Shown: piece after piece, positions 38,013-55,253 of the stretch
How the letters are laid out: the number at the start of each line of letters is the position of its first letter
Position numbering within the stretch: the stretch's first letter is position 1
The notes under the pieces: model-generated
What the model was told of the DNA's origin: nothing
Seen by the model: only the letters and a program-made list of their open reading frames with translations
Databases searched by the model: none
Position numbers and translations under genes: made by a program
DNA from: an uncultured Enterobacterales bacterium
Lineage (GTDB): Bacteria; Myxococcota_A; UBA796; UBA2385
Assembly (NCBI GenBank): GCA_964599085.1
Contig: CAZRFD010000013.1
Location: 2,369 to 66,368 of the forward strand
Direction of reading: 5' to 3'
DNA: 64,000 bases

Positions 38013-38354
38013 ATGAAGCCCCTCGTCCTCGCCCTGCTCCTCCCCCTGGCCTGCGACAAGGGCCTCGGCGACGCCGACTACGGCGGCGTGACCAACCAGG
38101 ACTTCCTCGACGACTACTCGGCCGCCTGGTGTGCTCGCCTCGACGAGTGCTACCCCGGCACCTATGCCTCGCAGCAGGAGTGCCTCGACAGCTACAACGA
38201 CTACTGGGGCGACTTCGCGTCGGTGGCCGACGAGTGCGCGCTCGACCCCTCCCAGGCCCAGGACTGCGTCGACTCCGTCCTCGCCGAGCCCTGCGACACG
38301 CTGCTGGCCAGCCCGACCATCGACGCCGCCTGCAGCAACCTCTGGAACTGCTGA
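38013..38354 (+). CDS. small Cys-rich lipoprotein
   Basis: MKPLVLALLLPLACDKG provides a signal peptide and lipobox. The mature part has eight further Cys. The ATG is preceded by GGAGA. Confidence 0.6.
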   Translation: MKPLVLALLLPLACDKGLGDADYGGVTNQDFLDDYSAAWCARLDECYPGTYASQQECLDSYNDYWGDFASVADECALDPSQAQDCVDSVLAEPCDTLLASPTIDAACSNLWNC

Positions 38355-38378
38355 GGGCCGACCACCGGGCCCCCTCGG

Positions 38379-39302
38379 TCAGCCGGCAGCCGCCCGGCGG
38401 TCTCGCCACGCCCACAACGCCGCCAGCGACAAGCCCGCCAGGATGTGCCAGATCCCCCACCAGGCGGCGACCACCGCCATGCCCCCCAGGCCGGCGAAGA
38501 AGGTGAAGACGATCACCAGGCCGAGCCCGCTGTTCTGGATGCCGACCTCGATCGACACCGCCCGCCGGTCGGCTTCCGGCAGGCGAGCGAGGGCGGCGGC
38601 GCCGTAGCCGGTGGCCAGGGCGGTGGCGTTCATGAGCGCGACCGGCAGGAAGACGGCACCGATGGCCACCAGGAAGTGATCGAAGTTCTTCTGGAAGGCG
38701 ATGAGCACGAAGGCCGCGAAGAACAGCAGCGAGCCCACCTTGAAGGGCCTGCGGAGGCGAGCGGCCACCGCCGGAAGGTGTTCGTTGAGGACCATGCCGA
38801 CGGTGACCGGCAGCACCAGCAGCAGGGCGAGGTTGCCCGCGAGTTGCACCGGGTCGAGGGCGAAGTCGCGCACCAGGCCGGCCGTCAGCTCCGAGCGAGT
38901 CCCCCAGAAGCCGAGGTTCAGCGGCGTCATCACCATGGCCGCCAGCGTGCTCACCGCCGTCATGCCCACGCTGACGCTGATCCTTCCGCCGGCGACGCTG
39001 GTGATGAAGTTGCTGACGTTGCCGCCCGGGCAGGCCGCCACCAGCATCATGCCGAGTGCCATGCTGGGGGTCGGCGCGAACCGGATGGCCAGCAGCCAGG
39101 TGAGCGCCGGCAGCAACAGGAACTGGCTGGCCAGGCCGATCAGTGGAGCCTTCGGGTCCCGCGCGAGCTGCCGGAAGTCGTCGACGCGCAGGTCCAGCGC
39201 CACGCCGAACATGACGAGGCCGAGCACGACGTTGAGGACGAACAGGCCGCGGGCATCGAAGGCGAGCTGGAGCTGGTCGATGGCGTCGGGTGAGACCTTC
39301 AC
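38379..39302 (-). CDS. bile acid:sodium symporter (BASS/SBF) family transporter
   Basis: The protein is polytopic. ...FGVALDLRVDDF...LLLPALTWLL...VAACPGGNVSNF... is typical of the SBF family. Confidence 0.85.
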   Translation of the reverse strand: MKVSPDAIDQLQLAFDARGLFVLNVVLGLVMFGVALDLRVDDFRQLARDPKAPLIGLASQFLLLPALTWLLAIRFAPTPSMALGMMLVAACPGGNVSNFITSVAGGRISVSVGMTAVSTLAAMVMTPLNLGFWGTRSELTAGLVRDFALDPVQLAGNLALLLVLPVTVGMVLNEHLPAVAARLRRPFKVGSLLFFAAFVLIAFQKNFDHFLVAIGAVFLPVALMNATALATGYGAAALARLPEADRRAVSIEVGIQNSGLGLVIVFTFFAGLGGMAVVAAWWGIWHILAGLSLAALWAWRDRRAAAG

Positions 39303-39397: not shown

Positions 39398-40849
39398 CTA
39401 CACCGGCGCCTCGTGGCTGCTGGTCTTCAGCAGCTCCATCTGCAGGATGCTGGCCGCCCCCATGGCCAGGCGCTTCAGCTCCTGGCGGCTCTGGAGCTGG
39501 AGGAGCTGGCGCGCGACGAAGCGCGGCCGGAAGTAGAACTTGCGGTGGCAGGTCTTGATGAGCTCGAGCAGCTCTTCCTTGCTCAGGTGTTCTTCCCAGG
39601 CGACCGGCACGGTCTCTCCGCACAGGGGATCGCGCATCAGCTTGTCCCAGCAGTCCGCCGGGTACAGGCCGAGCTTTGCGCCCTCGTGGAAGGTCGGCGT
39701 GCCGGGGTAGGGCGTGTAGATGGCGAAGGCGGCGTAGTCGGCGTCGAGCTTCATCGCCTCGTCGAGGTTCTTGAGGACGTGCTGCGGCGTCTTCTCGTGG
39801 GGGCCGCCGATCATGATGTAGGCGACGGAGCGGACCCCCTCTTCCCGGCACCAGCGGAAGACGCGGTGGACGTCGTCGGTGTCGCAGTGCTTGTCGTGTT
39901 CGGCCAGGCCGTCGTTGCTCATCGACTCCACGCCGAAGTGCATCTTGGTGCAGCCGGCTTCCCGGCAGCGCCGGACCTGCTCCCGCGTCGTGCCAGCGAC
40001 GGTGGTCTTGTAGCCCCAGGAGAATTTCAGCCCCCGCTGCTCGATGCGGTCGCAGAAGCGCATCGCCCACTGGCTGTTGGGCGTGAACAGATCGTCGACG
40101 AAGAAGACCTCGGTGATGCCGAGCGAGATGCAGTGCTCGATCTCGTCGAGGATGTTGTCGATCTCCCGGATCCGGTACTGCTTGGTGTAGGTGAAGCAGA
40201 ACGGACAGGAGTGAGGGCAGCCGCGGCTGGTGATGGCGGTCGTGACCAGCGGCTGCTTGGCGCCGGGCACCCAGTAGTCCCGGTACCGGGTGCGGCTGCG
40301 GTCGGGCCAGATCTGCCAGTCCAGCGAGCGCGTCTCCTTGCGGGGTGGGTTCTTGACCACCTGACCGCTGCTGTCCTTGAACCAGGTGCCCGCGACGCCT
40401 TGCAGGCTGCGCCCCTGGTCCACCGCCTGCACCATCTCGAGGAAGGCATCGTCGCCATCACCGGTGCAGATGCTGTCCACCCCCTGCAGGCCGATGGCGT
40501 ACTCGGGGAACATGATGGGGTGCGGGCCCCCCAGCGAGATGTGGGCGTTCGGGTTGCGGGCCCGGACGGCGTTGATGGTCTTCTGGACGTCGGGGAGGCT
40601 GTGCGTGTAGGTGGAGATCCCCACGAAGTCGAGGTCGTACCGGGACAGCCCGGCCTGGAAGTCGTCGTGGTCCATGTCGTCGACGACGGCGTCGTAGACC
40701 TCTGCCCGGAACGGTGTACGCTGCTCGAGGCTGGCCTGGAGGTACATCAAGCCCAGCGGCGGGAAGCAGTACACGCCGTAGGCCATGGACTCGCTGATGC
40801 CCGCCCAGACGCGCAGCTTCTCGGGGGGGTTGATGAGGGTGACGCTCAT
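39398..40849 (-). CDS. B12-binding-domain radical SAM enzyme
   Basis: An N-terminal B12-binding-like Rossmann region (...DFVGISTYTHS...) is followed by the CxxxCxxC motif in SRGCPHSCPFCF. Confidence 0.85.
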   Translation of the reverse strand: MSVTLINPPEKLRVWAGISESMAYGVYCFPPLGLMYLQASLEQRTPFRAEVYDAVVDDMDHDDFQAGLSRYDLDFVGISTYTHSLPDVQKTINAVRARNPNAHISLGGPHPIMFPEYAIGLQGVDSICTGDGDDAFLEMVQAVDQGRSLQGVAGTWFKDSSGQVVKNPPRKETRSLDWQIWPDRSRTRYRDYWVPGAKQPLVTTAITSRGCPHSCPFCFTYTKQYRIREIDNILDEIEHCISLGITEVFFVDDLFTPNSQWAMRFCDRIEQRGLKFSWGYKTTVAGTTREQVRRCREAGCTKMHFGVESMSNDGLAEHDKHCDTDDVHRVFRWCREEGVRSVAYIMIGGPHEKTPQHVLKNLDEAMKLDADYAAFAIYTPYPGTPTFHEGAKLGLYPADCWDKLMRDPLCGETVPVAWEEHLSKEELLELIKTCHRKFYFRPRFVARQLLQLQSRQELKRLAMGAASILQMELLKTSSHEAPV

Positions 40850-40974: not shown

Positions 40975-42648
40975 TCAGCGCCCGCCGCGCATCGTGGTCA
41001 GTGCGCGCCGCGCCCGCGCGGCGTCCGCCGTCGGCTCGGGCACCCGGTAGAGGACCAGCCCGCCCGACTCTGTCGCAGGGGGGCCCAGCAGCTCGCCGAG
41101 GACCGCCTGGAGCGTCGGCAGATCCTCCGCGCGGAACCAGTCGCGGTGCAGCACGACGCTGCCCACCCCCGCCGCCGCGAGGCGCCGGCTCGTGTCGGCC
41201 GGCGGCCCCTGGGGACGCATCAGCCGGGGCAGCAGCCACGTCGCCACGCGCACCCGGGGGCTGGCGACACTGGTGCCGATGCAGCGCTCGAGGACTGGCT
41301 GGCCGTGGGCGAGCTGGCGCGCACAGCTCTCGTTGCGGGCCCACATCTCGACGTCGGACTGTTCGGGCCAGGCGGCGAGGCCGTAGAGGTCGAGCACGGC
41401 CCCCTCTCCCTCGCCGAGGGACACCGGCGCTGCGATCTCACCCTGCCGTCCGGGCATGCCGGTGACCACGAACACGTCGAGCAGCGCCACCGAGAGCGCC
41501 GCCACACGGAACAGCCCGGTCGGCCGAGCCCGGTCCAGCAGCAGCGCCGCCGCGACCCCGCCGCACATGGCCGTGAGCCACGCGAAGCGCACCGGAAAGC
41601 GCAGCACCGCACCCAGCGGCGGCAGCCACAGGAAGGACAGCGGCGAGGGCATCCCCGCGTCGTCCAGCTCCAGGCGCCACACAGGCCCCAGCGCGAGCAG
41701 CAGGCCGACCGCTGCGAGGCCGAGCAGCCACCGCGCTCCCCTGGCCCGCCAGCCGAGCAGCAGCCCGGCCGCCACCAGGGCCCCCGTGGGGGCGCCCACG
41801 CTGTGGCCCACCACGTCGACGGTCGGGGTCCAGGTCAGCAGGCTGTCCAGCGAGGCCGAGCCGAGCCGCGCCAGATCGACGATGCGCCGCGGCGGCACGG
41901 TGTCGCCAGCACCCGCCCGATAGGTCAGGGCCAACCAGCCGGTCACCGGCAGGAGCACCACGAGCGCCGCACAGTGGTGCAGCACCGCGCGCCAGCCGGT
42001 CGTCAGGGCGCGCAGACCGAGCACGACGAGCACGACGACGGCGACGAGCCCGTGGTAGGCCGTCGTCAGCAGGGCGAGCGACGCCCCCAGGCCCGCCCAC
42101 AGCCCGTGCCGCAGCCGGCCGTCGGACCCGCTGGCCAGCCACGCTGCCCCGAGCACGAGCGGCAACCCCGGCTCGAGCACGTGCGGGACCTGCCCCTCCA
42201 GCGCAGCACTCGCCATCACGCCCGAGAAGCCGGTCGCCAGCCCGGCCACGAGCGACCAGGGCCGCGACACCCCGAAGCCCAGTGCAGCACAGCGCTCCGC
42301 GGCGAAGGCCGTCAGCGCCGGCCCCAGCCAGGCGACCAGCCCCACGATGGTGCTGGCCGACAACAGCGGCCGCAGCAGCCACGACAGGGCCAGGAAGACC
42401 CAGGAGTCCAGGCGGGCGAGGGTCTCGCCCTCCGGCCAGGCGCTGGTGGCGTGGAACAGGTCGGTGCCCACGCGCGGCGCCTGGTCGGCCAGCCACAGGG
42501 CGGGCAGCAGGTCGAAGTGACGCCCCGGCAGGCGGCCGGGATCCAACAGCACCGCCGGGTAGCTCCACGCAGCAGACACCAGGACGAAGCATCCCAGGAC
42601 GAGGAGATGCCCCCCCACGCGGCGCGCGGTCACGGGTGGGCTGCTCAC
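40975..42648 (-). CDS. polytopic membrane protein with a C-terminal soluble domain (GT-C/glycosyltransferase-39-like topology; function uncertain)
   Basis: I read about 12 hydrophobic segments followed by a roughly 150-aa soluble tail. GTG 42648 overlaps the upstream stop (GTGA), with GTG 42633 and 42618 as alternatives. Confidence 0.6.
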   Translation of the reverse strand: MSSPPVTARRVGGHLLVLGCFVLVSAAWSYPAVLLDPGRLPGRHFDLLPALWLADQAPRVGTDLFHATSAWPEGETLARLDSWVFLALSWLLRPLLSASTIVGLVAWLGPALTAFAAERCAALGFGVSRPWSLVAGLATGFSGVMASAALEGQVPHVLEPGLPLVLGAAWLASGSDGRLRHGLWAGLGASLALLTTAYHGLVAVVVLVVLGLRALTTGWRAVLHHCAALVVLLPVTGWLALTYRAGAGDTVPPRRIVDLARLGSASLDSLLTWTPTVDVVGHSVGAPTGALVAAGLLLGWRARGARWLLGLAAVGLLLALGPVWRLELDDAGMPSPLSFLWLPPLGAVLRFPVRFAWLTAMCGGVAAALLLDRARPTGLFRVAALSVALLDVFVVTGMPGRQGEIAAPVSLGEGEGAVLDLYGLAAWPEQSDVEMWARNESCARQLAHGQPVLERCIGTSVASPRVRVATWLLPRLMRPQGPPADTSRRLAAAGVGSVVLHRDWFRAEDLPTLQAVLGELLGPPATESGGLVLYRVPEPTADAARARRALTTMRGGR

Positions 42649-43280
42649 GGCTGCTCGCTGGCAACGGTGCCGCGGCCATGTCCCCCGCGCAGCGACAGCC
42701 CGAAGCTCACCAGCCCGGCCAGCAGCCACAGCCCGGCCAGCCCGCGCCGCCAGCCCTGTTCAGGTGGCGGCGGCGGCGGGTCCGGGGCAGCCGGCAGGCG
42801 CTCGATGCGGTCGTGCGCGCCCGCCCAGGACAGGGACACCAGGGCGTCGTCACCCGCGAGCACCTCGCCGCTCCACAGGGTCCGGTCCTCGTCGCGCAGC
42901 AGCAGGCGCCCCTCCGCCGGCACGCCCCGCAGCCGCACGGCGAACACCGCGAGCCCCATGTGCTCCAGCCGCCCCTCGACCGTCCCCATCCGCGCGGACA
43001 GCGGCGCGTCCCGGGGGGCGCCCCGCAGGACCACCGTGAGCGAGGGGCTCCCCTCCCCCACTTCTGGCAGGTCGAGCCCGAGCCAGGTCTCGTCGACCAC
43101 CGGCGGCGGCGCAGCGGCCTGCACCATGTCCGCCGCACCCGCGCCCGGAGCGGCCGCACCCGGATCGGCCGCGACCGGCGTCGAGGCAGCCAGGAGGGCC
43201 GTGCCGAGGAGAAGGGACACACGCTGCTCGGAGACGCGGAGTGGGCGGGAGGACAGCGCCAGGAGGATACCCCTGCGCAC
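42645..43280 (-). CDS. exported protein with a Pro-rich stalk and a C-terminal transmembrane anchor
   Basis: Start is GTG 43280. A signal-like segment ...VSLLLGTALLAASTPVAA is followed by ...PDPPPPPPEQGW... and then GLAGLWLLAGLVSFGLSL. Its 5' end lies inside direct-repeat copy A. Confidence 0.55.
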   Translation of the reverse strand: MRRGILLALSSRPLRVSEQRVSLLLGTALLAASTPVAADPGAAAPGAGAADMVQAAAPPPVVDETWLGLDLPEVGEGSPSLTVVLRGAPRDAPLSARMGTVEGRLEHMGLAVFAVRLRGVPAEGRLLLRDEDRTLWSGEVLAGDDALVSLSWAGAHDRIERLPAAPDPPPPPPEQGWRRGLAGLWLLAGLVSFGLSLRGGHGRGTVASEQP

Positions 43281-43345
43281 CCTCCTCCCCCTCCCCCCCG
43301 CCAGAGACGATGTCCGGACCGGTGCGCGATCTGCGCGAGGTCCTC
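43233..43345. repeat. direct repeat copy A (left flank of the protease cassette)
   Basis: 43233-43281 matches 47936-47984 at 46 of 49 nt. 43305-43336 is identical to 48030-48061 (32 nt). Confidence 0.9.
43310..43345 (+). pseudogene. orphan 5' fragment of the UbiD-family gene (ATG plus about 10 codons, MSGPVRDLRE...)
   Basis: It is identical to the true start of the 48035-49840 gene. Beyond codon 10 the frame runs antisense through the 43344-43832 gene. Confidence 0.6.
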
Positions 43346-43832
43346 ACCGAGGCCGGTTCGAACCGCCTCCGGCCTCGGGGCGCGCATCGGCTGCGGCAGC
43401 GCCTGCATCGAGCGATGCCCGGACCGCGCGGATCCGGTAGAGCTGGCGCACGGCCTGACGCGAGGCCGCGTAGCCCCGGCCTCCAAACAGCTCGCGGTTG
43501 TCGTCGTAGAACGCGCGCGCTTCGGCGTCACCGGGCGTCGCCATCGACAGGCGGCGCGCGATCTCGACGCCGATGTCCCCGACACCCGCATCCCGGAGCG
43601 CGCCCGCCCAGGCATCCGACCGGTCGACCAACGCCGCGACCAGCGCGGGCGACATGCCGGGCGCCAGAGCCGAGATCTGGAAGCGGCGCCGCTCCAGCGC
43701 CGGCCCGTGTGCTCGCGGCGAGCTGATCTCCTCCATCCCGGGATCCGGCCACCGTCGGACCGAGGTCAGGCGACCGCCGATCAGGACGGCGGCGACCACC
43801 ACCGCCACTACCGGGAGCGCTCTGGACGACAT
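43344..43832 (-). CDS. N-terminally anchored protein with a SurA_N/PpiD-like chaperone-type segment (tentative)
   Basis: ATG 43832 lies 4 nt after the upstream stop. The transmembrane segment is LPVVAVVVAAVLIGG. ...ATPGDAEARAFYDDNRELFGG... resembles the 'xxEvxxyYxxNxxxF' pattern of SurA N-terminal-type domains. The stop lies at the edge of repeat copy A. Confidence 0.5.
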   Translation of the reverse strand: MSSRALPVVAVVVAAVLIGGRLTSVRRWPDPGMEEISSPRAHGPALERRRFQISALAPGMSPALVAALVDRSDAWAGALRDAGVGDIGVEIARRLSMATPGDAEARAFYDDNRELFGGRGYAASRQAVRQLYRIRAVRASLDAGAAAADARPEAGGGSNRPR

Positions 43833-43836
43833 CGGG

Positions 43837-44454
43837 CTACCCCGCGCCGACGACGGACAGGGTCGCGGTGATCGTGTCGAATTCCACCACGGGGATGGTG
43901 ACGACGTTGTAGAGGCAGGCCTCCGCCGACCCGCCCCCATCCACCACCACACGCGACTCATCGACCATCAAGGTCGATCCCCCGAGGCTGACTTGATCGA
44001 CCCGGAGCGAGTCGTGCAGGCTTGGCGCATGCGGGATGAACGAGATCAGCGCGATCTCGCCGTCCAGCGACAGCGCCGGCGCGGGCGTCCCGAGGTACGC
44101 CTCAAACAACTTGTTGAACCGGGCGACGTCCGCGGCAGCGACCACGGCCAGCGTGCCGTCCGCGAATCCGTCCACGACCAGCGAGTCCGCTTCCACGCAG
44201 TCATCCACGTAGCTGGATCGCCCGTGTGCGATCTCCGTGAACGCGATCCCCGGATCCCCGGTCTCCTTGCCGCCACCGTCGGGGCTACCGCCGTCTCCGC
44301 CACCACCGTCCGCGACGCCACCGTCCGCGACGCCGCCGTCCGCGACGCCGCCGTCCGCGACGCCGCCGTCGCCGCCTCCACCGGGTTCACCGCACGACGT
44401 GCACAGGGCAGCGAAGACGCTCAGCATCAGGATCTTCGGTTGACCACGGGTCAT
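43837..44454 (-). CDS. lipoprotein, paralog 1 (Asp/Gly/Val/Ala-repeat linker plus C-terminal beta-rich domain)
   Basis: ATG 44454 is preceded by GAGGAGGA. The N-terminus reads MTRGQPKILMLSVFAALCTSCG, followed by (DGGVA)4. The C-terminal end ...CLYNVVTIPVVEFDTITATL is shared with paralog 2. Confidence 0.7.
   Translation of the reverse strand: MTRGQPKILMLSVFAALCTSCGEPGGGGDGGVADGGVADGGVADGGVADGGGGDGGSPDGGGKETGDPGIAFTEIAHGRSSYVDDCVEADSLVVDGFADGTLAVVAAADVARFNKLFEAYLGTPAPALSLDGEIALISFIPHAPSLHDSLRVDQVSLGGSTLMVDESRVVVDGGGSAEACLYNVVTIPVVEFDTITATLSVVGAG
44308..44367. repeat. 4 x 15-nt tandem repeat encoding (DGGVA)n in lipoprotein paralog 1
   Basis: The plus-strand unit gtccgcgacgcc[a/g]cc occurs four times. 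Related copies are present at about 45056-45115 in paralog 2. Confidence 0.85.
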
Positions 44455-44465
44455 GGCAGTCCTCC

Positions 44466-44588
44466 TCACTGGATGCCGGTCAACGGCGTGTGGGCCCGGC
44501 CCCCGTCACCGGACTGCCCAGTGGCCGCAAGCGGGCGCCGCACATCCGTCGGCACGTCGACCACTACCGGCAGCAATCCGGACGACAT
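44466..44588 (-). pseudogene. 40-codon chimeric junction ORF created by the tandem duplication
   Basis: The product is MSSGLLPVVVDVPTDVRRPLAATGQSGDGGRAHTPLTGIQ. Its 5' end copies the start of the 43344-43832 gene (MSSRALPVV...) and its 3' end copies the last codons and stop of the S8 gene (...TGIQ*). Confidence 0.55.
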
Positions 44589-44593
44589 CGGGT

Positions 44594-45220
44594 CTACCCC
44601 GCCCCGGCGACGGTCAGCGTCGCGGTTATCGTGTCGAATTCCACCACGGGGATGGTGACGACGTTGTAGAGGCAGGCAGGCTCATCGCCGCCGTCCGCAT
44701 CGACCCGTGTCTCATCCACGACGAGCGCTGTCCCAGCGAGATCCACGCGGTCGACACGCAGGGTCTCGTTCAGCGTGGGACAGAGGGGCAGGTAGGAGAT
44801 CAGCGCGATCTCAGACTTGAGATCAACGGCGGGCGGGGCCACCGGGATGTTGTCTGAGAACAGCGAGATGAACTCTGCGTCCGAATAGGCAGCGAGCACG
44901 ACGAGATCTTCCTCCGCGCAGGCGACGGTGTCCGACTTCGTTGGCCCGCAGGTCACAGATGGGATCAGATCGTTGACCACCTCGACAAACGCGATCCCCG
45001 GATCCCCCGTCTCCTTGCCGCCACCGTCGGGGCTACCGCCGTCTCCGCCACCACCGTCCGCGACGCCGCCGTCCGCGACGCCGCCGTCTCCGCCACCACC
45101 GTCCGCGACGCCGCCGTCGCCGCCTCCACCACCGCCGTCGGCTTCATCGGGCTCGCCGCAGGCGGTGCACAGGGCAGCGAAGACGCTCAGCATCAGGATC
45201 TTCGGTTGAACACGGGTCAT
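44594..45220 (-). CDS. lipoprotein, paralog 2
   Basis: ATG 45220 is preceded by the same GAGGAGGA ribosome-binding site, 12 nt after the S8 stop. The N-terminus reads MTRVQPKILMLSVFAALCTACG. The ends are near-identical to paralog 1 and the central third has diverged. Confidence 0.7.
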   Translation of the reverse strand: MTRVQPKILMLSVFAALCTACGEPDEADGGGGGGDGGVADGGGGDGGVADGGVADGGGGDGGSPDGGGKETGDPGIAFVEVVNDLIPSVTCGPTKSDTVACAEEDLVVLAAYSDAEFISLFSDNIPVAPPAVDLKSEIALISYLPLCPTLNETLRVDRVDLAGTALVVDETRVDADGGDEPACLYNVVTIPVVEFDTITATLTVAGAG

Positions 45221-45231
45221 GGCCGTCCTCC

Positions 45232-47541
45232 TCACTGGATGCCGGTGTCGGGGCCGTCCGCATCGTCACGGGCCCGGTCTTCCCAGTAGAACGCGGTGAA
45301 CACGGAGCGCCGCTGCAAGCCGTAGTGGTCGCTCGGGTCGGCGTTGGCGGGCACCGACAGGCCGGTCACATCGATGCGCCACGGGTTGCCGGGCAGTCCG
45401 TCGCTGGCGTCGAGCTGCAGCCGGTGGGCATCGGGACCGGTGTTGGGATGGTTCGTACACACGCCGATGTCGTCGCGGCACACGCGGGTGCGCATCACCG
45501 CCACGTCTGCACCGGTCACGTTCATGTTCGGTTCGTACCACCAGACGGCGGCCTTGAAGCGGTCCACCGCCAGGGGGATGTCCTGGTTGACGCCGACGAT
45601 GTTCGGATTGAGGTCCGTGGATCGCGTCTCTCCATCGTCGATGGTCCAGGCGTGGAGCTGCACCCGAAACGGAGCGTCCATGCCGGCCGGTGTCCACATG
45701 CGCATCCGGATCCGGCCCGCCCCCCACAGATCGTCCACGGGCGCGCCATAGCCCTTGACGCCGGTGTCGAGCTGGCCATCCCCCATCAACAGCATCTGGG
45801 CGTGCAGCAGGCCGACGTTGTTGGCCGTCGCCGCCCCGTACTCCTCCACCAGCAGATCCTTGAGGTTGGCGGCAGCGCCAGCGACGACGGGAGCCGCAAA
45901 GCTGGTGCCGTGATGCTCGATCGTGGAGTAGCCATCGTCATACTCCGCCATCCCCGACGAGCGCCCCGCCGCAGCCACCAGGTCGATGATGGCGTTGCCA
46001 TCGGCGCCACCACCGCGCGAAGAGCTGCCGTAGATCGGCCCAGCGTTCAGGTTCGACGCCGAGTAGTCGTAGCCGCCGACCGAGAATGTCCCCGCAGCCG
46101 GCGAGGGCACGTCCACCGTGCAGCCGCTGCTGCCCTGGTTTCCGGCCGCGTGCACGAAGAAGACGCCCGCGTGGTACAGCGCGTTTGCGTAGTCGTTGCG
46201 GGAATGCACCGCCTGGCGAGGGTCGCACTTGGACGGAGCGCAGTGCAGCGACATGTTGACCACGTCGAGCCCCAGCGTGGCGGCGTACTGCATCGACCGG
46301 TTCACACCGCCGCTGTTGGAGTCGATGGCGCAGAACGACGACTCGGTCGTCATGCCGGTGCGCGCCCGCCGCTCGGCCCACGATGTCACGGCGGGATCCT
46401 GCGCCTGGGTCAGATCGGCGATGAGCTGGCCGGCGACAAGATTGCCGTGCTGCTCCGACGTGCTGGTCGTACCCACCGGATCGCTCACCCAACCCGAGTC
46501 GTAGACCCACTGGTCGGTCAGCCGGGGGCCGCCGCAGGACAGCGGCGGGCCGCAGTCCTTCCAGGCGGGGTGGTCCACGTCGACCTTGCTGTCGATGATG
46601 CCGACGAAGATGTCGTCGACGTTGCTGCGGCCGCTGGCCCGGTCCCCGTCGTAGCCGTCGTCGAGGAACTGCTGCACCTGCGACGCATCGCGGATCTCCT
46701 GGCCCCGGTTGACCGCGGAGTATTGCGCGTCGGGCCGCAGCTCGATCCGGGCGACGGCGCTGTCCGCGGCCAGCCGCTCGATCACCGCCGGAGGGGCTTC
46801 GACATCAAAGGCGTTGACGAGCCAGGTGTGAGACAGGACGCGCGCGCCGCCAGCCTCTGCCATTGCGCGTAGCTCAGCCTGCGACGCGTCGATCACCGTC
46901 TTCCGGTCTTCGATGGCCAGCACGCGGGCTTCCATACGGTCGAGCACGAAGGCCGGGTCGGTGTCGAGCATGCCCGGTCCAGCGTCGGGCAGATCCAGGG
47001 CCGGCTGATCCGCCAGCACGACCCGGACCTCAAGCAGATCGTCGCTGGCCGCGGTGCTGAGCCAGTCGGAGACATGCCAGTCCATCTCGAAGCTGGTCGC
47101 GGGCAGGTCGGTCCCCGCCGCGCGCCGCGCGATGAACACGTCGGTTTCATCGACAGTGGCGTCGGGGTGGACTTCGAGCCACGCCGCAAGCAGTTCGTCT
47201 TCGGACAGGACCACGGAGTCGACGCGAAGGACCCGCACCTCTGAGACAAGGTCACTGTCGACGGAGTCCTGCCAGGAGTCCGCGACGATCTCGTAGTGAC
47301 CGCCGTCGGGATCGACCAACGAGTCGAAGCCCACCGTGAAGCTGCTTCCGTCCCGCAAGGTGACGACGTTGCTGCCGGTCACCGACCAGCTCTCGGCACC
47401 GTCGGGAGCGACGCGGCGCTGCTGGTAGAAGAGCACCTCTCCCCCGGTCGCGGCCGCCGTGGTGGCACTTGCTGCCGTGTCTGCGCCGCCCGTGTCCGCC
47501 GCGCGGGACGCTGAACTGGAGGCGAGCGCCACGAGCACCAC
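45232..47541 (-). CDS. subtilisin-like serine peptidase (S8 family) with large N- and C-terminal extensions
   Basis: The catalytic triad contexts are VGIIDSKVD (Asp), SEQHGNLVAG (His) and HGTSFAAPVVAG (Ser). GTG 47541 is the only in-frame start but gives a poor signal peptide (see findings). Confidence 0.9.
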   Translation of the reverse strand: MVLVALASSSASRAADTGGADTAASATTAAATGGEVLFYQQRRVAPDGAESWSVTGSNVVTLRDGSSFTVGFDSLVDPDGGHYEIVADSWQDSVDSDLVSEVRVLRVDSVVLSEDELLAAWLEVHPDATVDETDVFIARRAAGTDLPATSFEMDWHVSDWLSTAASDDLLEVRVVLADQPALDLPDAGPGMLDTDPAFVLDRMEARVLAIEDRKTVIDASQAELRAMAEAGGARVLSHTWLVNAFDVEAPPAVIERLAADSAVARIELRPDAQYSAVNRGQEIRDASQVQQFLDDGYDGDRASGRSNVDDIFVGIIDSKVDVDHPAWKDCGPPLSCGGPRLTDQWVYDSGWVSDPVGTTSTSEQHGNLVAGQLIADLTQAQDPAVTSWAERRARTGMTTESSFCAIDSNSGGVNRSMQYAATLGLDVVNMSLHCAPSKCDPRQAVHSRNDYANALYHAGVFFVHAAGNQGSSGCTVDVPSPAAGTFSVGGYDYSASNLNAGPIYGSSSRGGGADGNAIIDLVAAAGRSSGMAEYDDGYSTIEHHGTSFAAPVVAGAAANLKDLLVEEYGAATANNVGLLHAQMLLMGDGQLDTGVKGYGAPVDDLWGAGRIRMRMWTPAGMDAPFRVQLHAWTIDDGETRSTDLNPNIVGVNQDIPLAVDRFKAAVWWYEPNMNVTGADVAVMRTRVCRDDIGVCTNHPNTGPDAHRLQLDASDGLPGNPWRIDVTGLSVPANADPSDHYGLQRRSVFTAFYWEDRARDDADGPDTGIQ

Positions 47542-47603
47542 GACCCACGTGGTCGGGCGTCCCCAGGCCCCACCATCTCCACGGTCAGGCCGAGCTACGC
47601 GCG

Positions 47604-47623
47604 GCGAGCGAGCGAGCGAGCGA
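47604..47623. repeat. (GCGA)5 tetranucleotide repeat
   Basis: There are five perfect units, read as (TCGC)5 on the minus strand. The first unit coincides with the -12 element of the sigma54-like motif. Confidence 0.9.
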
Positions 47624-47634
47624 GATTCGTGCCA
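47620..47634 (-). promoter_or_regulatory. candidate sigma54 (-24/-12) promoter upstream of the S8 peptidase operon
   Basis: The minus strand reads tTGGCACGaatcTCGCt, against the consensus YTGGCACG-N4-TTGCW. The GG and GC dinucleotides are correctly spaced, with one mismatch in the -12 box. It lies about 80 nt upstream of GTG 47541. Confidence 0.4.
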
Positions 47635-47673
47635 ACATCGGAACCTCCTGCCGAAACGCTAACACAGAATGCA

Positions 47674-47703
47674 GCGAGCCACAGCCCCGCGAGCCACAGC
47701 CCC
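47674..47703. repeat. 2 x 15-nt tandem repeat (gcgagccacagcccc)
   Basis: There are two perfect adjacent copies, followed by a degenerate gcgagcggtgagccgcgagccgcgg. Confidence 0.85.
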
Positions 47704-47772
47704 GCGAGCGGTGAGCCGCGAGCCGCGGAGTCGATGGGGTACGGCTTGCGTCACAGTTCCATGAACGGTGGC

Positions 47773-47925
47773 GGATCGAGCGGTGCCGGCTCCGGCGAGC
47801 CTCGCCCGCTCGATCCCCTCATCGGATCGAGCGGCGCCGGCTCCCGCGAGCCTCGGTCGCTCGATCCCCTCAGCGGATCGAGAAGCGCCGGCTCCGGCGA
47901 GCCTCGCCCGCTCGATCCGCTCGCC
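47773..47925. repeat. 3 x 51-nt tandem repeat, each unit an 11-bp-arm inverted repeat (GGATCGAGCGG-N22-CCGCTCGATCC)
   Basis: The units are at 47773-47823, 47824-47874 and 47875-47925. The units abut with no spacers between them. The third unit has a degenerate left arm (ggatcgagaag). Confidence 0.92.
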
Positions 47926-47935
47926 GCCACCCCGC

Positions 47936-48070
47936 GACGCAGAGTGGGTGGGAGGACTGCGCCAGGAGGATACCCCTGCGCACCTGGCCGCCGCCTGCCG
48001 AGCAGCTCAGGCCCCCTCCCCCCCGGTGAAGACGATGTCCGGACCGGTGCGCGATCTGCGCCAATTCCTC
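47936..48070. repeat. direct repeat copy B (right flank of the cassette; contains the true ubiD-family start)
   Basis: See copy A. Copy B has about 22 extra nt (47985-48012 against 43282-43287) between the two conserved blocks. Confidence 0.9.
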
Positions 48071-49840
48071 GACCTGCTCCGCCGCGACCGCGATCTGGTG
48101 GTCATCGACGCCCCCGTCGCCCCCTACCTGGAGCTGGCCGAGATCCACAAGCGGGTCATCGCCGCCAACGGGCCGGCCCTGCTGTTCACGAACCCGCTGG
48201 GCGCCGACATGCCCGTGGTCACCAACCTGTTCGGCACGAAGAAGCGCGCCGAGCTGGCCTTCGGCGACCGCCCGCTGCGCTTCGTGCAGGAGGCCGCCCG
48301 CCTGCCCATGGAGATGCTGCCGCCGACCCTCGGCAAGCTGTGGGACAAGCGCGGCTTCCTCGGCCAGGGCCTCAAGGTGGGTATGAAGCGCCGCGCCCGC
48401 GGGCCCATCACGGAGGTGGTCGAGGAGCCGCGCCTGACCCGTCTCCCCCTGCTGCATGCCCACAAGGACGACGGCGGCGCCTTCGTGACCCTGCCGCTCG
48501 TGTACACCGAGCACCCCGAGCACGGCGGGCACAACCTCGGCATGTACCGGATCCAGCGCTACGACGACCGCACCACCGGGATCCACTGGCAGATCGGCAA
48601 GGGCGGCGGCTTCCACCACCACGTCGCCGAGCAGCGCGGCGAGGCCCTGCCCGTCACCGTCTTCGTCGGTGGCCCCCCCGCGCTCATGCTCTCAGCCATC
48701 GCGCCGCTGCCCGAGAACGTGCCCGAGCTGCTGCTGGCCAGCCTGCTGCTCGGCGACAAGCTGCCCCGGGTCGACAACCCCGCCGGCCCCCACCCGCTCA
48801 TCGCCGACGCCGAGCTGGCGCTCATCGGCAAGGTGCCGCCGGGCGTGCGTCGCCCGGAGGGGCCCTTCGGCGACCACTACGGCTACTACAGCCTCACCCA
48901 CGACTTCCCGATCATCGAGCTGGACGCCGTCTGCCGACGCCGGGACGCCATCTGGCCGGCCACCGTGGTGGCCAAGCCCCGCCAGGAGGACTTCTACATC
49001 GGCGACTACCTTCAGGAGCTGCTGTCGCCGCTCTTCCCGGTGGTCATGCCCGGCGTCCGGGACCTGTGGTCCTACGGCGAGACCGGCTTCCACAGCCTCG
49101 GCGCCGCCGTGGTCCAGGACCGCTTCGGCCGGGAAGCCATGCAGCACGCCTTCCGCATCCTCGGAGAGGGGCAGCTCGCCCTGACCAAGTTCCTGCTGGT
49201 CACCGACAGGCCGCGGGATCTGCGCGACTTCCGGTCCCTCCTGACCCACGTCCTGGCCCGCTTCCGCCCGGAGACCGACCTCTATGTCTTCGGCCGGCTC
49301 AGCCTGGACACGCTGGACTACACCGGCCCGGCGCTGAACGAGGGCAGCCGCGGCGTGATGCTCGGCGTCGGCGACCCGGTCCGCGACTGCCCCGCGCAGT
49401 TCCAGGGCGAGCTGCCCGCAGACATCACCACCGCCGAAGCCTTCGTCCCCGGCTGCCTCGTCCTCTCCGGCGCCTCCCACGACGACGAACCCGACCTCGC
49501 CGCGCGGCTGGTCGACCACGCCGACGCGCTCTCGGCCTGGCCGCTGATCGTCCTGGTCGACGACGCCCGCCGTACCTGCGCCGACCCCACGCGCTTCCTG
49601 TGGACCGTGTTCACCCGCTTCGAACCGGCCAGCGACATCTTCGCCCGCCAGCGGATCGTCCACAACCACATCGTGCGTGAGGGCCCCATCGTCATCGACG
49701 CCCGCATGAAGGCCCGCTACCCCGCCGAGCTGTTCTGCGACCCCGACACGAAGGCCCGGGTGGATACCCGCTGGAACGAGTACTTCCCCGACGGCGACGT
49801 GGTCATGGGCGACGGCGACTGGGAGGCCGGGGCGAGCTGA
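48035..49840 (+). CDS. UbiD-family (prenylated-FMN-dependent) decarboxylase
   Basis: The N-terminus MSGPVRDLRQFLDLL...GPALLFTNPLGADMPVVTNLFGT is collinear with UbiD. The UbiD core is ...HWQIGKGGGFHH.... The track start at 47768 is rejected. Confidence 0.9.
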   Translation: MSGPVRDLRQFLDLLRRDRDLVVIDAPVAPYLELAEIHKRVIAANGPALLFTNPLGADMPVVTNLFGTKKRAELAFGDRPLRFVQEAARLPMEMLPPTLGKLWDKRGFLGQGLKVGMKRRARGPITEVVEEPRLTRLPLLHAHKDDGGAFVTLPLVYTEHPEHGGHNLGMYRIQRYDDRTTGIHWQIGKGGGFHHHVAEQRGEALPVTVFVGGPPALMLSAIAPLPENVPELLLASLLLGDKLPRVDNPAGPHPLIADAELALIGKVPPGVRRPEGPFGDHYGYYSLTHDFPIIELDAVCRRRDAIWPATVVAKPRQEDFYIGDYLQELLSPLFPVVMPGVRDLWSYGETGFHSLGAAVVQDRFGREAMQHAFRILGEGQLALTKFLLVTDRPRDLRDFRSLLTHVLARFRPETDLYVFGRLSLDTLDYTGPALNEGSRGVMLGVGDPVRDCPAQFQGELPADITTAEAFVPGCLVLSGASHDDEPDLAARLVDHADALSAWPLIVLVDDARRTCADPTRFLWTVFTRFEPASDIFARQRIVHNHIVREGPIVIDARMKARYPAELFCDPDTKARVDTRWNEYFPDGDVVMGDGDWEAGAS

Positions 49841-49925
49841 GTCGGACGGCGTCGCCTGCGCTCCGACGCACGCCCTGCGTGGGCCGCCCCTCTCCCTCCG
49901 CCCGACCGACGGCAGCGCGGCGGAC

Positions 49926-49998
49926 GCTGCTGACACCACCCTGTCAGCAGGCCGGGGCGAGGCGGAAGGCTGCTGACACGAGGCTGTCAGCAGGCCGG
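49926..49998. promoter_or_regulatory. two copies of a 24-bp palindrome (CTGCTGACA-N6-TGTCAGCAG), candidate operator pair
   Basis: The copies are 49926-49955 (gctgctgacaccaccctgtcagcaggccgg) and 49969-49998 (gctgctgacacgaggctgtcagcaggccgg), with a period of 43 nt. They lie 55-125 nt upstream of the VOC gene. Confidence 0.5.
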
Positions 49999-50052
49999 CG
50001 GTACGTGGACCGTGTCCGCAAGCCCGCGGGCAATGACTCCCAAGGAAAAAGC

Positions 50053-50412
50053 GTGTCCCTCCCTCCTCCCGGCACCATCATCTGGCACGAGGTGGTCGGC
50101 GCCGACGCCGACGGCCTCCGCTCCTTCTACGGCCAGCTCTTCGGGTGGCGCTTCACCGAAGACAAGCCCACCTACAGCATGTTCCCCGGCCCGGACGGTC
50201 GACCGGTCGGCGGGATCGGCGCCATCGGTGCCGGCCAGAGCTGGACGACCTTCTACGTGGCCGTGGCTGACCTGGAGACGGCCATGCAGGATGCGTCCGC
50301 GCTCGGGGCCACGGTGCTGCGGCAGGTGGTCGACGCCGGTCCCAACCGCTTCTGCGTGATGGCCGACCCCGAGGGCCACCCCTTCGGCCTCGTCCAGGTC
50401 AGCGCCGCCTGA
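50053..50412 (+). CDS. VOC (glyoxalase/bleomycin-resistance fold) family protein
   Basis: GTG 50053 is preceded by AAGGA. ...IWHEVVGADADGLRSFYGQLFGWRF...FCVMADPEGHPFGLV matches the VOC fold pattern. Confidence 0.8.
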   Translation: MSLPPPGTIIWHEVVGADADGLRSFYGQLFGWRFTEDKPTYSMFPGPDGRPVGGIGAIGAGQSWTTFYVAVADLETAMQDASALGATVLRQVVDAGPNRFCVMADPEGHPFGLVQVSAA

Positions 50413-50446
50413 CGGCGCTCCGTCGCGGCGTGCCATCCTGTGGACC

Positions 50447-51124
50447 ATGCGCCGCGCCGACCGCCTCTTCCGCCTCGTCCAGCTCCTCCGCAAGCGCCGC
50501 TTCGCCACGGCCGAGGAGCTGGCCGAGGCGCTGGCGGTGTCGAAGCGAACCGTCTACCGCGACATCCGAGACCTCCAGGACAGCGACGTCCCGATCCATG
50601 GCGAGGCCGGCGTCGGCTACACGCTGCAGCGCGGCTTCGAGCTGCCACCCTTGACCTTCTCCACCGCCGAGCTGGAGTCGCTGGTCCTGGGCGCTCGAAT
50701 GGTGCAGGCCTGGGCCGATCCTGCGCTGGGTGAGGCCGCCGCCACGGCGATCGAGAAGATCGAGGGAGTGTTGCCCGACGCCCTCCGCCGGGTCGTCGAC
50801 GAGTCGGCGCTGTTCGCCATGCGCCTGCACCGCGAAGCCGACGTGGAGGGCAACCTCGGGCTCCTCCGCACCGCGGTGCGAGAGCGTCGCGTGGTCCGCT
50901 TCGAGTATGAAGCCCAGGACGGTCGGCGCAGCGACCGCCAGGTCCGGTCGCTCGGGCTGTTCTTCTGGGGCCAGGTGTGGACACTGGCGAGTTGGGACCC
51001 GCTGCGCGCCGACTTCCGGTCGTTCCGTACCGACCGCATGTCGGCGCTGGCCCTGACCGACACGCGCTTCGCTCCCGACGAACGAGACCTCGACGCCTTC
51101 CTGCAGGCCCAGCGGCGACGCTGA
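50447..51124 (+). CDS. YafY-family transcriptional regulator (HTH plus WYL domain)
   Basis: The N-terminal HTH is RLFRLVQLLRKRRFATAEELAEALAVSKRTVYRDIRDL. A WYL-type segment ...VVRFEYEAQDGRRSDRQVRSLGLFFWGQVWTLASWD... follows. Confidence 0.85.
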   Translation: MRRADRLFRLVQLLRKRRFATAEELAEALAVSKRTVYRDIRDLQDSDVPIHGEAGVGYTLQRGFELPPLTFSTAELESLVLGARMVQAWADPALGEAAATAIEKIEGVLPDALRRVVDESALFAMRLHREADVEGNLGLLRTAVRERRVVRFEYEAQDGRRSDRQVRSLGLFFWGQVWTLASWDPLRADFRSFRTDRMSALALTDTRFAPDERDLDAFLQAQRRR

Positions 51125-51136
51125 CGGACCGCCCCC

Positions 51137-52879
51137 TCAGTCCGATCCGCCCCCAGCCGCTTCACCCGCAGGCGCGGCCGGCGGCCCCTGGATGTAGGCC
51201 TTCAGCGCCGCCGTGCGCTCACCCTTGGAGAGAGCAGCCAGCCGATCCGGGAAGGGGATCCCGGGGTCGGCCTGGATGAGGCGCTCCAGGATGACGGGCC
51301 CGGCGTCGGCGTTGGCGACGAGGGGGCCGACGTTGCCCAGCAGGGCGTCGTGCATCCAGGCTTCCGTCATGTAGGCGAACAGGTAGTTCTGGCTGTAGGC
51401 CGGGTACACCCAGACGATGCTGGAGACGAGGGCCGGGTCATAGACGAAGTCGCGCCCGTCCGCCGGTGGCAGCGGCATGCCCGTGAGCCGCGAGCGGGTC
51501 TCGGCGGCGAAGCGCTGGATGGCCCGGAGGTCCTTGGGATCTTCGTAGAGCTTCCGCTCGACCAGGGTCTGCACGATGCTGTCCGTGATCCAGCCGGCCA
51601 TGTGGCGGGCACGCCAGGCGTCGAGCGCCTGTGCCCGGGCGGCGTCCATCTCGGGCACGTAGCGGGAGGAGAAGTCCGGGTCGTAGACCACGCGCTCGAA
51701 GAACTGGGCGAAGCCCTCGGACCAGGGTGGCGGCAGCTCCCACAGCACGGGGCTCTTCACCGCCGCGTCGGGCAGGTTGTTCCACCACACGGCGTGTCCA
51801 CCCTCGTGGGCGAGGGCTTCGTACTGCCACACCGACCAGCGCTGGTCCTGGCTCATGACGATGGCGATGTTGCCCGGCGGGCGGATGGGGAAGCCGTAGA
51901 CGCCCGACCGCGTGTAGCGCCGCGGGCCGGCGTAGACCTGCCAGCCCTCCGTCGACAGGCCCATGTCCTGGAAGGCGGTGCGGACGCGTTCTTCAGCCAG
52001 GTCGGTGTCGAAGTAGAGATCGGCTTCGTCGCGGCCCTGTTCCAGGCCGGCGCGCCGCCGGAGCAGCGGCTCGTTTGCGAACTCGAGCTGGATGCCCATG
52101 GCGTCGGCTTCGGCCTGCAGGCGGTCATGGACCGCTTCGTCGATGGGCTTCACGATGGGCTGCAGGTCCGCAATGATGCGGTCGACGTCGTCGGGGCTGA
52201 GGCCCTGGCTGGCCAGGGCCAGCTCCCAGTAGTTGGCGTAGCCGGCCGCCTGGGCGACCGTGTTGCGCAGCCCGACCAGCGCGAGCAGGTCGGCGTCGAC
52301 GCTCGAGAGCTGCTGGTCGACGTACTCCTGTGCCAGCTCCCGGCGTAGCTCGACCGAGAGATCGTCGGCGTCCTTTGAGACGTTGACCCACGAGTCCGAC
52401 AGCGGGATGGCGATGCTGCCGTCGGCCGCCGTCCAGGTGGCTTCCTGGGCGCGGGCTTCCTCCAGCCGCCCGATGAGGCGCGTCTCCTCGGCCTTCTGAT
52501 CTTCCGTCCAGGCCTTCGCGATGATCATCTGGCGCCAGTAGGCGTCGGCCTTGGTGCGCTCCAGGCTGCCCTCGGGCGCCCCCCGAGACTTCTCGATGGT
52601 CTCGCCGACCAGCGGTTCCCGGAAGAAGGACACCCGGGCGGTCTCGGCGTCGGAGAGGCGCCGACGCGCTTCGGCGTTGCGGATGTTCCGGGCCGTGTCC
52701 CGGTCGGCGATGCCGAGCCGTACCGCAAGCTCGGTGTAGCGCTTGTCGATGCGGGCCAGCGGGTCCGAGCTGGCGGTACAGCCGGGAGCGAGCCCGGCCG
52801 AGACCGACAGGAGCAGGGACAGCCACACGGCAGAGGCGCGACCGGACCGCGGGGAGGAGGAGGAGGCGACGGGACCCAT
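51137..52879 (-). CDS. lipoprotein zinc metallopeptidase (HExxH gluzincin, M2/M3/M32-like)
   Basis: Start is ATG 52879. The signal and lipobox read ...AVWLSLLLSVSAGLAPGC. The zinc motif is ALAHEGGHAVW. The 919 extra N-terminal codons in the track ORF are antisense to the next gene. Confidence 0.75.
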   Translation of the reverse strand: MGPVASSSSPRSGRASAVWLSLLLSVSAGLAPGCTASSDPLARIDKRYTELAVRLGIADRDTARNIRNAEARRRLSDAETARVSFFREPLVGETIEKSRGAPEGSLERTKADAYWRQMIIAKAWTEDQKAEETRLIGRLEEARAQEATWTAADGSIAIPLSDSWVNVSKDADDLSVELRRELAQEYVDQQLSSVDADLLALVGLRNTVAQAAGYANYWELALASQGLSPDDVDRIIADLQPIVKPIDEAVHDRLQAEADAMGIQLEFANEPLLRRRAGLEQGRDEADLYFDTDLAEERVRTAFQDMGLSTEGWQVYAGPRRYTRSGVYGFPIRPPGNIAIVMSQDQRWSVWQYEALAHEGGHAVWWNNLPDAAVKSPVLWELPPPWSEGFAQFFERVVYDPDFSSRYVPEMDAARAQALDAWRARHMAGWITDSIVQTLVERKLYEDPKDLRAIQRFAAETRSRLTGMPLPPADGRDFVYDPALVSSIVWVYPAYSQNYLFAYMTEAWMHDALLGNVGPLVANADAGPVILERLIQADPGIPFPDRLAALSKGERTAALKAYIQGPPAAPAGEAAGGGSD

Positions 52880-53056
52880 GGCAACTCCTGGTACAGAGAA
52901 GGCTATCGCCCTGTGGCGAGGCCGCGCCCTGCGACGTGCCGGCGCGTGGCCCGGAGAGCCCCATGGCTGCTCGTTCGCTGGAGGTGCAAGGCACGGCGTG
53001 GCGCCCGCTGGACCCGGCACGGGGACGGCGCGATAGGCCACCGCTGCGAGGATCCC

Positions 53057-55174: not shown

Positions 55175-55253
55175 GGGCGACGCGCTGACGGTCCCTCTGG
55201 CTCCGCCGGCGACAGGCGTTATACGCCGCTCCTCGGCGAACCCAGGAAGACCG

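Follow-up and report, generated by a model that had tools for sequence, protein, structure and literature searches.

How a complete protease operon, carrying no recombinase gene, comes to stand between two long direct repeats is the question raised by a locus in the stretch of DNA analysed here, 64 kb from an uncultured Myxococcota-like lineage (the window). At this locus a 4.6-kb cassette encoding an S8 (subtilase) peptidase lies between ubiD and a divergent leftward operon whose first gene is an open reading frame (ORF) of 211 aa. A first-pass annotation of the sequence had left the mechanism open between attachment (att)-like sites of an integrative element and Campbell-type integration of a circle. 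The comparisons described below favour the latter or a similar route: insertion by host recombination with duplication of the target ranks first and, taken as a whole package, is judged probable. In the best reading the repeats are copies of a target sequence native to this lineage; they are not the termini of a mobile element, nor do they belong to a dispersed repeat family.

Structure of the direct repeats

The elements of the locus are as follows.

43233..43345: direct repeat copy A, 113 nt; block 1, C-rich tract and dead ubiD start (ATG at 43311 plus 9-12 codons)
43305..43336: 32-nt perfect core of copy A (partner 48030-48061); ubiD start codon and codons 1-9
43346..47935, minus strand: inserted cassette, 4590 nt; one transcription-unit-like block, missing from the empty site on contig L003
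47936..48070: direct repeat copy B, 135 nt and thus 22 nt longer; same elements as copy A, running on into live ubiD
48030..48061: 32-nt perfect core of copy B (partner 43305-43336)
42645..43280, minus strand: left flank gene, 211-aa ORF; likely true start GTG at 43220; first gene of the leftward operon
48035..49840, plus strand: right flank gene, UbiD-family decarboxylase, 601 aa

Block 1 is identical at 46 of 49 positions between the copies (43233-43281 and 47936-47984) and block 2 at 52 of 59 (43287-43345 and 48012-48070), the latter containing the 32-nt perfect match. In a global alignment copies A and B match at 102 positions and differ at 11, with 22 gap columns that correspond to additional bases in copy B. 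Their local alignment score is 137; on either strand of the window, the best stretch unrelated to them reaches 27-29. Within the window the 32-mer AGACGATGTCCGGACCGGTGCGCGATCTGCGC has exactly two occurrences when up to three mismatches are allowed, with none expected by chance, and the same is true of the 26-mer core of block 1. Alignment and pattern counts thus bear out the coordinates and identities of the near-identical repeats first described around the 4.6-kb cassette, and the gap columns account for the ~22 additional nucleotides noted between the blocks of copy B. On the right the duplication ends at 43345/48070, and its left edge is near 43233/47936. The TCCTC at the right edge is conserved ubiD sequence, and the four bases preceding it are altered in copy A.

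The two copies differ in what follows them. In copy B the reading frame opens a 601-aa protein that has all three Pfam domains of UbiD, whereas copy A has the ATG and the codons for MSGPVRDLR but from there on lies antisense to the last cassette gene; the description of copy A as a dead 5' fragment of ubiD and of copy B as the start of a full-length ORF is therefore correct. Apart from a homologous single copy on L003, the repeat unit was found nowhere else in the window or in ~90 fetched loci. A dispersed repeat of the kind represented by repetitive extragenic palindromes or miniature inverted-repeat transposable elements, a possibility raised by the first-pass annotation for the unit of ~110 nt, was rejected, since the unit has only two copies in the window and is not scattered over the fetched loci.

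The empty site and the polarity of the insertion

As a search of 5.8 billion proteins gave just two relatives of the 211-aa ORF, related loci were found through UbiD. The closest is L003 (Logan SRR29593759), whose UbiD is 92% identical at the amino acid level and 89.7% at the nucleotide level. On this contig a 186-aa homologue of the 211-aa ORF (85% identical) is directly divergent from ubiD and is followed by the membrane protein of the operon (89%), and the intergenic spacer of 172 nt contains one copy of block 1, one ubiD start, and no cassette. Such an empty site, with the unit present once, is what the first-pass annotation had proposed to look for in relatives, and it supports the proposal that 4.6 kb was inserted between ubiD and the 211-aa-ORF operon, which had until then been divergent neighbours.

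More distant relatives also lack the cassette. In L004 (UbiD 81%) and L088 (UbiD 79%) the position upstream of ubiD is taken by a beta-lactamase-family gene, and in L005 (UbiD 78%) by a 649-aa gene, so that no relative with a UbiD identity of 75-92% carries the cassette at this site. The matches listed from a UbiD scan of species-representative genomes, among Myxococcota and other metagenome-assembled genomes (MAGs), are at most 71% identical. In the JGI metagenome collection, which does not include this sample, neither the block 1 pattern GCCAGGAGGATACCCCN{0,2}TGCGCAC (the source contig included) nor a profile of the 211-aa-ORF family gave a match.

The beta-lactamase-family gene occupies positions 2169-3792 of L004 and 150-1677 of L088. 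An imperfect repeat of the C-rich spacer motif, ~30 nt long, brackets the L004 gene; its alignment score was reached by 3 of 500 shuffles. The spacer upstream of ubiD may be a recurrent insertion spot.

The direction of the event can be read from a segment of ~57 nt in the L003 spacer, which is alignable to the ubiD-upstream region of the outgroup L004 and is missing from both copy A and copy B. Since the segment is present in L003 and L004, its shared absence from A and B is derived, which makes A and B each other's closest relatives and places the duplication within this lineage. It follows that A and B are not a chromosomal copy paired with one that a distant element brought in. Since L003 keeps the segment, its spacer is not a product of recombination between A and B, and the empty state is ancestral.

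The same segment bears on the converse history, in which the cassette was ancestral at the site and was lost from L003 by recombination between the repeats. Direct repeats with an identical core of 32 nt could support a RecA-mediated deletion, and only a single empty-site contig is available. However, the L003 spacer with its L004-shared segment is no A/B recombinant, the cassette is also missing from L004, L005 and L088, and the protein search returned no S8 orthologue of 69-100% identity, so that this history is disfavoured and appears very improbable.

Contents of the duplicated unit

The GTG start of the mechanically called ORF at 42645-43280 lies inside copy A, as first noted, but the accompanying view that the repeat carries the beginning of a gene fares less well. 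Block 1 is at least 90% conserved as DNA between the window and L003, yet indels of 1 nt and 2 nt shift the reading frame between them. The N-terminal coding region that follows block 1 is poorly conserved in L003, whose gene call starts at a GTG equivalent to window position 43220, 13 nt outside the repeat. Given this conservation across frame-breaking indels and the outside start of the L003 gene, it is doubtful on sequence grounds that the repeat contains any coding sequence of the 211-aa ORF, for which GTG 43220 is the likelier start.

Block 1 of copy A includes a conserved GGAGGATACC element. A GGATA(C/G)C motif and a C-rich tract are found 30-70 nt upstream of ubiD in L003, L004, L088 and L089, and are displaced in L005. 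As the motif is kept whatever gene lies upstream, block 1 is likely associated with ubiD and is most likely part of its promoter or operator region. The duplicated unit would then be essentially the ubiD control region with the first 9-12 codons of the gene, a region that also lies upstream of the leftward operon.

Genes and edges of the cassette

The cassette contains the following features, in agreement with its first description as an S8 peptidase, two paralogous putative lipoproteins, an anchored protein and a repeat-rich leader.

43347..43378, no strand: 10-bp perfect inverted repeat CCGAGGCCGG-N12-CCGGCCTCGG, at the extreme left cassette edge, inside the C-terminal extension of the 162-aa protein
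43344..43832, minus strand: 162-aa helical protein with an N-terminal anchor; stop codon lying across the edge of repeat A
43837..44454, minus strand: putative lipoprotein A, 205 aa, with (DGGVA)n repeats
44594..45220, minus strand: putative lipoprotein B, 208 aa, tandem paralogue of A; G+C content at third codon positions (GC3) 0.79, the window minimum
45232..47541, minus strand: S8 (subtilase) peptidase, 769 aa; Pfam PF00082, E 6.6e-22
47542..47935, minus strand: leader of the S8 gene, 394 nt; (GCGA)5, a 15-nt repeat in 2.4 copies, and three 51-nt tandem repeats

At the level of the family profile, the S8 protein matches PF00082 with 78.6 bits against a cut-off of 21.8. Lipoproteins A and B are 67% identical and both are Cys-bearing signal-peptide proteins. 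The 15-nt tandem repeats in both genes (44269-44383 and 45017-45130) give rise to low-complexity linkers of the (DGGVA)n type after the signal peptide, and they are the source of all matches to plasmid databases.

The 162-aa protein has homologues of 154 aa, encoded 3' of the lipoprotein gene in L006, L007 and L090, and differs from them by a C-terminal extension of 14 aa that runs through the 10-bp inverted repeat. This inverted repeat could, as a guess, be a terminator; the predicted RNA fold of 121 nt around it is no more stable than those of shuffled sequences. The earlier label "SurA_N-like" for the 162-aa protein is weak: the protein itself has no Pfam match at E <= 0.01 and no sequence match in PDB, and what remains of the label are sub-threshold matches to the N-terminal part of Rotamase_2 in 3 of 5 members of its family (best E 0.006). 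Its single-sequence AlphaFold model is all-helical with a poor predicted local distance difference test score of 55.

The 51-nt repeats (47772-47924) form three tandem units, each an imperfect palindrome, and abut copy B. The unit occurs nowhere else in the window or the fetched loci, including the S8 leaders of L006 and L007, and a dispersed role resembling that of repetitive extragenic palindromes is ruled out by this single array at a single place. A coding role as a 17-aa repeat was also rejected, as the frame in question runs without a stop for 1.9 kb across ubiD. Homology of the leader to the upstream regions of the S8 genes in L006 and L007 is restricted to the proximal ~110 nt (to 47651).

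Profile searches of all four cassette proteins (Pfam, NCBIfam, PADLOC) revealed no integrase or other recombinase, transposase or relaxase domain, as had been stated earlier from the sequence, and the cassette contains no further ORF of note. The best inverted alignment between its two 150-nt ends scores 20, compared with a mean of 21.5 for shuffled sequences, and the ends have no direct repeats of their own beyond chance. A transposon or insertion sequence was accordingly rejected, there being neither a transposase nor terminal inverted repeats, and the duplication being 113/135 nt, in contrast to target-site duplications of ~2-15 bp. Nothing useful was obtained from the Rfam scan, the sigma-70 promoter and terminator scan, or PADLOC.

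Origin of the protease module

The search of 5.8 billion proteins yielded ten homologues of the S8 protein, the best of which apart from itself is 69% identical. This homologue is encoded at another locus, in the same order of S8 gene, lipoprotein gene and gene for a small anchored protein, and is represented by L006, from the related MAG GCA_003694325.1, and L007, another contig of JGI metagenome 3300023548, to which the 70-kb contig containing the window belongs. L006 and L007 are 90% identical in DNA sequence, close to the 88.6% between the flanking genes of the window and the same MAG, and L007 is therefore probably, to judge from these distances, the orthologous module locus of the window organism or of a sibling. 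The cassette is only 71-72% identical in DNA sequence to the L006/L007 module, so that it must have diverged long before its arrival and lived elsewhere earlier.

The module belongs to a family in related uncultured Myxococcota (L006, L007 and L090-L092) whose members have, like the cassette, these three gene families in identical order and a conserved proximal S8 leader with a (GCGA)n run; it is conserved down to an S8 identity of 47% (L090). The window copy differs from the family in its locus and in sequence, with identities of 69% for the S8 protein and 42-47% for the other proteins, and it has a duplicated lipoprotein and a longer leader with 51-nt repeats.

In L090 (3628-11329) the module lies just downstream of a gene for a large serine recombinase, two helix-turn-helix (HTH) genes, a ParA-like gene and a 176-aa gene, and in L006 it is tandemly duplicated. 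These two contexts together indicate that the module is recombinationally active and is possibly borne by mobile elements; L090 itself is possibly an integrative element with the module as cargo. Several details of these loci are recorded here as side observations. A second copy of part of an HTH gene is present in L090 after the module, near the contig end. The first feature of L006 (1-4606) is the 3' end of a further S8 copy, behind which come a lipoprotein gene and a truncated anchor gene; these upstream copies are 86-92% identical to those downstream of the S8 gene. L007 (3278-5276) has an additional lipoprotein gene and a truncated anchor gene, as well as a relic, 70 nt long, of the upstream 194-aa gene.

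None of the modules in L006, L007 and L090 has a repeat structure of the type seen in the window. Candidates for a flanking duplication were considered at each locus and rejected: the 70-nt repeat of L007 is a relic of segmental duplication away from the module ends, the repeats of L006 are the tandem duplication of the module itself, and the repeat of L090 is the second HTH gene copy.

The compositional deviation reported for the cassette is present, with GC3 values of 0.79-0.87 against 0.905 (sd 0.036) for 37 other ORFs of the window. However, the paralogous lipoprotein genes of L007 have the same low GC3 (0.77-0.79, with neighbours at 0.86-0.95), which identifies it as a trait of the gene family and makes it weak evidence for foreign origin.

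Mechanism of insertion

The comparisons show that the S8-protease operon was inserted, in this lineage specifically, into the short control region between the divergent 211-aa-ORF operon and ubiD, that ~115 nt of the lineage's target were duplicated, and that no mobility gene came with the insert. The duplicated target takes in block 1, most likely a control element of ubiD, together with the C-rich spacer and the first 9-12 ubiD codons. Through copy B ubiD would keep its full promoter and 5' end, and through copy A the leftward operon would keep its original upstream sequence, now ending in a dead ubiD start. On the favoured account such a duplication, with no recombinase present, most likely arose by host recombination: through a single (Campbell-type) crossover of a circle that carried the module along with the duplicated ~115-nt stretch or, equivalently, through attachment of incoming DNA by its ends to staggered positions, as on a pair of sister chromosomes. 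Because copy B would be required by ubiD and copy A would be the sole native upstream sequence of the leftward operon, each copy would serve one flanking gene and both would survive. The recombination route and this argument from promoter retention are what we infer from the arrangement of the locus.

Single crossovers between the Escherichia coli chromosome and circular DNA have left inserts flanked by duplications, sequenced at 109-950 bp (PMC3240628). The window likewise has a direct duplication of ~100 bp or more around the insert, no recombinase encoded by the element, and a single copy of the duplicated segment in the uninserted allele (L003). The E. coli cases differ in that they involve laboratory plasmids with cloned homology, whereas the window has no known donor circle; its homology of ~115-135 nt is at the low end of the Campbell-type range, and the copies have since diverged by ~10% and an indel. 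For the second route, the bridging of sister chromosomes by incoming DNA during transformation, which generates merodiploids and tandem duplications, offers a partial parallel (PMC3784515). There, fragment ends joined at staggered positions duplicate the interval between them, as would be required in the window, but the events described concern homologous pairing at repeats and large duplications, and the route is not known for illegitimate joins or an interval of 115 nt (PMC3784515).

Several observations weigh against this account. A single empty-site relative, L003, was found, and on a contig of 4.1 kb. In GCA_003694325.1, the closest MAG with a name, contigs break to the left and right of the site (L002, the end of RFKJ01000016.1, and P0136, RME20517.1); the breaks fall inside the 211-aa-ORF homologue and inside ubiD, ~150-200 nt outside the expected repeats. 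The promoter scan gave no sigma-70-like promoter in either repeat copy. No circular donor with the module and the ~115-nt stretch is known, plasmid and phage collections having given low-complexity matches or none, so that the origin of such a circle is an additional assumption. Finally, a perfect core of 32 nt amid repeats otherwise diverged by ~10% is a pattern resembling an att core, although this core coincides with the most conserved UbiD codons.

The breaks in the related MAG also bring up an assembly artefact, in which a chimeric metagenome contig, as the window could be, would join two strains or loci through the repeat. The copies nevertheless differ at 11 positions and by a 22-nt indel, unlike an overlap artefact, and both junctions are embedded in continuous genes. 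Moreover, the S8 and UbiD proteins are both listed on an NCBI-source contig of 86,588 bp, which suggests, without proving it, that a second assembly links them. An artefact is thus hardly credible.

The core-like pattern is one reason to consider a decayed site-specific integrative element, in which the repeats would be attL and attR, the 5' end of ubiD would have been rebuilt on integration, the integrase would have been lost or have acted in trans, and the 32-nt stretch would be the crossover core. A recognised class of elements, the cis-mobilizable elements (CIMEs), lacks the genes for integration while retaining attL and attR (PMC5704250). With them the window shares flanking direct repeats, cargo genes without an integrase, and one copy of the repeat at the empty site, and the module adjoins a large serine recombinase gene in L090. 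However, the cassette contains neither a recombinase nor a relic of one, and the position of the core, on the UbiD codons that are most conserved, is enough to account for its preservation in the live copy. Both arms share the deletion derived in this lineage, so that an "element-borne" copy would need a source in the same lineage. Large serine recombinases act at short att sites with a 2-bp crossover and do not generate identities of ~115 nt. The window further differs from a CIME in that its repeats are not evidenced as recombinase sites and both stem from the lineage's own intergenic sequence, and no second occupied site, accretion, or other related element at the site was seen in the window, the ~90 loci or among the S8 homologues. 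In some integrative elements, such as SXT in prfC, integration at the 5' end of a gene supplies a replacement promoter and 5' end. Here too a dead 5' fragment of the target lies on one side and the intact gene with a duplicated upstream region on the other, but those elements carry an integrase, share a short core only with their target, and bring non-homologous replacement sequence. No finding of this analysis points to site-specific recombination, and a decayed element of this kind is considered unlikely.

Homology-facilitated illegitimate recombination (HFIR) with DNA from a very close relative was also weighed. A linear donor with the cassette and its own ubiD upstream region and 5' end would recombine homologously inside ubiD and join illegitimately at about codon 12 of the recipient ubiD, so that copy B would be the donor's and copy A the recipient's. 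HFIR is documented in several bacteria (PMC3240628), it gives the observed order without a dedicated duplication step, and the left junction has only a few bases of possible microhomology (TCCTC/ACC). Against it, the donor must already have had the cassette directly upstream of block 1, which merely relocates the original insertion, and the lineage-specific deletion shared by A and B requires a donor that was nearly the same organism. A mosaic test for donor-derived ubiD 5' sequence was negative, as the identity of ubiD to L003 shows no step along its length. HFIR is accordingly regarded as quite unlikely.

A last possibility is that the S8/lipoprotein/anchored-protein operon is an undescribed mobile unit that moves as an entire transcription unit, lacks its own recombinase and makes target duplications of more than 100 nt. 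For instance, an RNA or DNA intermediate might be copied into staggered breaks at a divergent promoter that is open for transcription. Compatible with such a unit are the start of the insert 394 nt upstream of the first gene and its end exactly at the 10-bp inverted repeat after the last, the differing contexts of the module in relatives, and the presence of another gene at the ubiD-upstream spot in L004 and L088 (in L004 with the ~30-nt imperfect flanking repeat). We give this possibility very little credence, and insertion by host recombination with duplication of the target is retained as the preferred explanation.

Flanking genes and nearby features

The UbiD protein has UbiD_N, UbiD and UbiD_C domains above their cut-offs and is placed in UbiD subfamily TIGR00148 (274.9 against a cut-off of 244.85), while its score for the menaquinone biosynthesis decarboxylase equivalog TIGR03701 (442 bits) is under the cut-off of 495.9. 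The leftward operon continues from the 211-aa ORF with two further genes.

40975-42633, minus strand: 552-aa membrane protein
39398-40849, minus strand: B12-binding radical SAM enzyme

A second lineage-specific indel lies directly after ubiD, at window positions 49841-51126. It contains a glyoxalase-like gene (50005-50412) and an HTH-WYL regulator gene (50447-51124), both missing from L003 and L004, where the ubiD stop abuts a convergent gene of ~580 aa. The junctions of this indel share a short imperfect repeat, GCTGA(GT)CGGAC. Two copies of an inverted repeat, CTGCTGACA-N6-TGTCAGCAG, are found at ~49929-49993, upstream of the glyoxalase and WYL-regulator genes, and have the appearance of putative operators. 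The adjoining mechanical ORF of 1499 aa (51137-55636, minus strand) starts as a long run of (PPPSPV)n, and over the first two-thirds of its length it resembles a translation of antisense or non-coding sequence; the actual gene probably corresponds to the C-terminal ~580 aa, homologous to the post-ubiD gene of L003 and L004. Elsewhere in the window, ARAGORN reports a tRNA-Gly(GCC) candidate of 101 nt (38325-38425, minus strand), which is too long for a tRNA and falls between ORF calls or overlaps them.

Significance

The locus is a neat and well-polarised case of a known type of event and not a new kind of element; a new question would be opened only if the operon were indeed an undescribed mobile unit. 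It documents a natural gain of an operon in an uncultured Myxococcota-like lineage by means of the occupied site, the empty site and outgroups. The target duplication covers the whole divergent control region, so that both neighbouring transcription units would remain intact. It shows that integrase-free insertions with duplications of ~100 nt also occur outside the laboratory, and repeats of this kind are not automatically att sites. The analysis marks out the spacer upstream of ubiD as a variable spot, and the protease module as a unit that is repeatedly rearranged and may be mobile.

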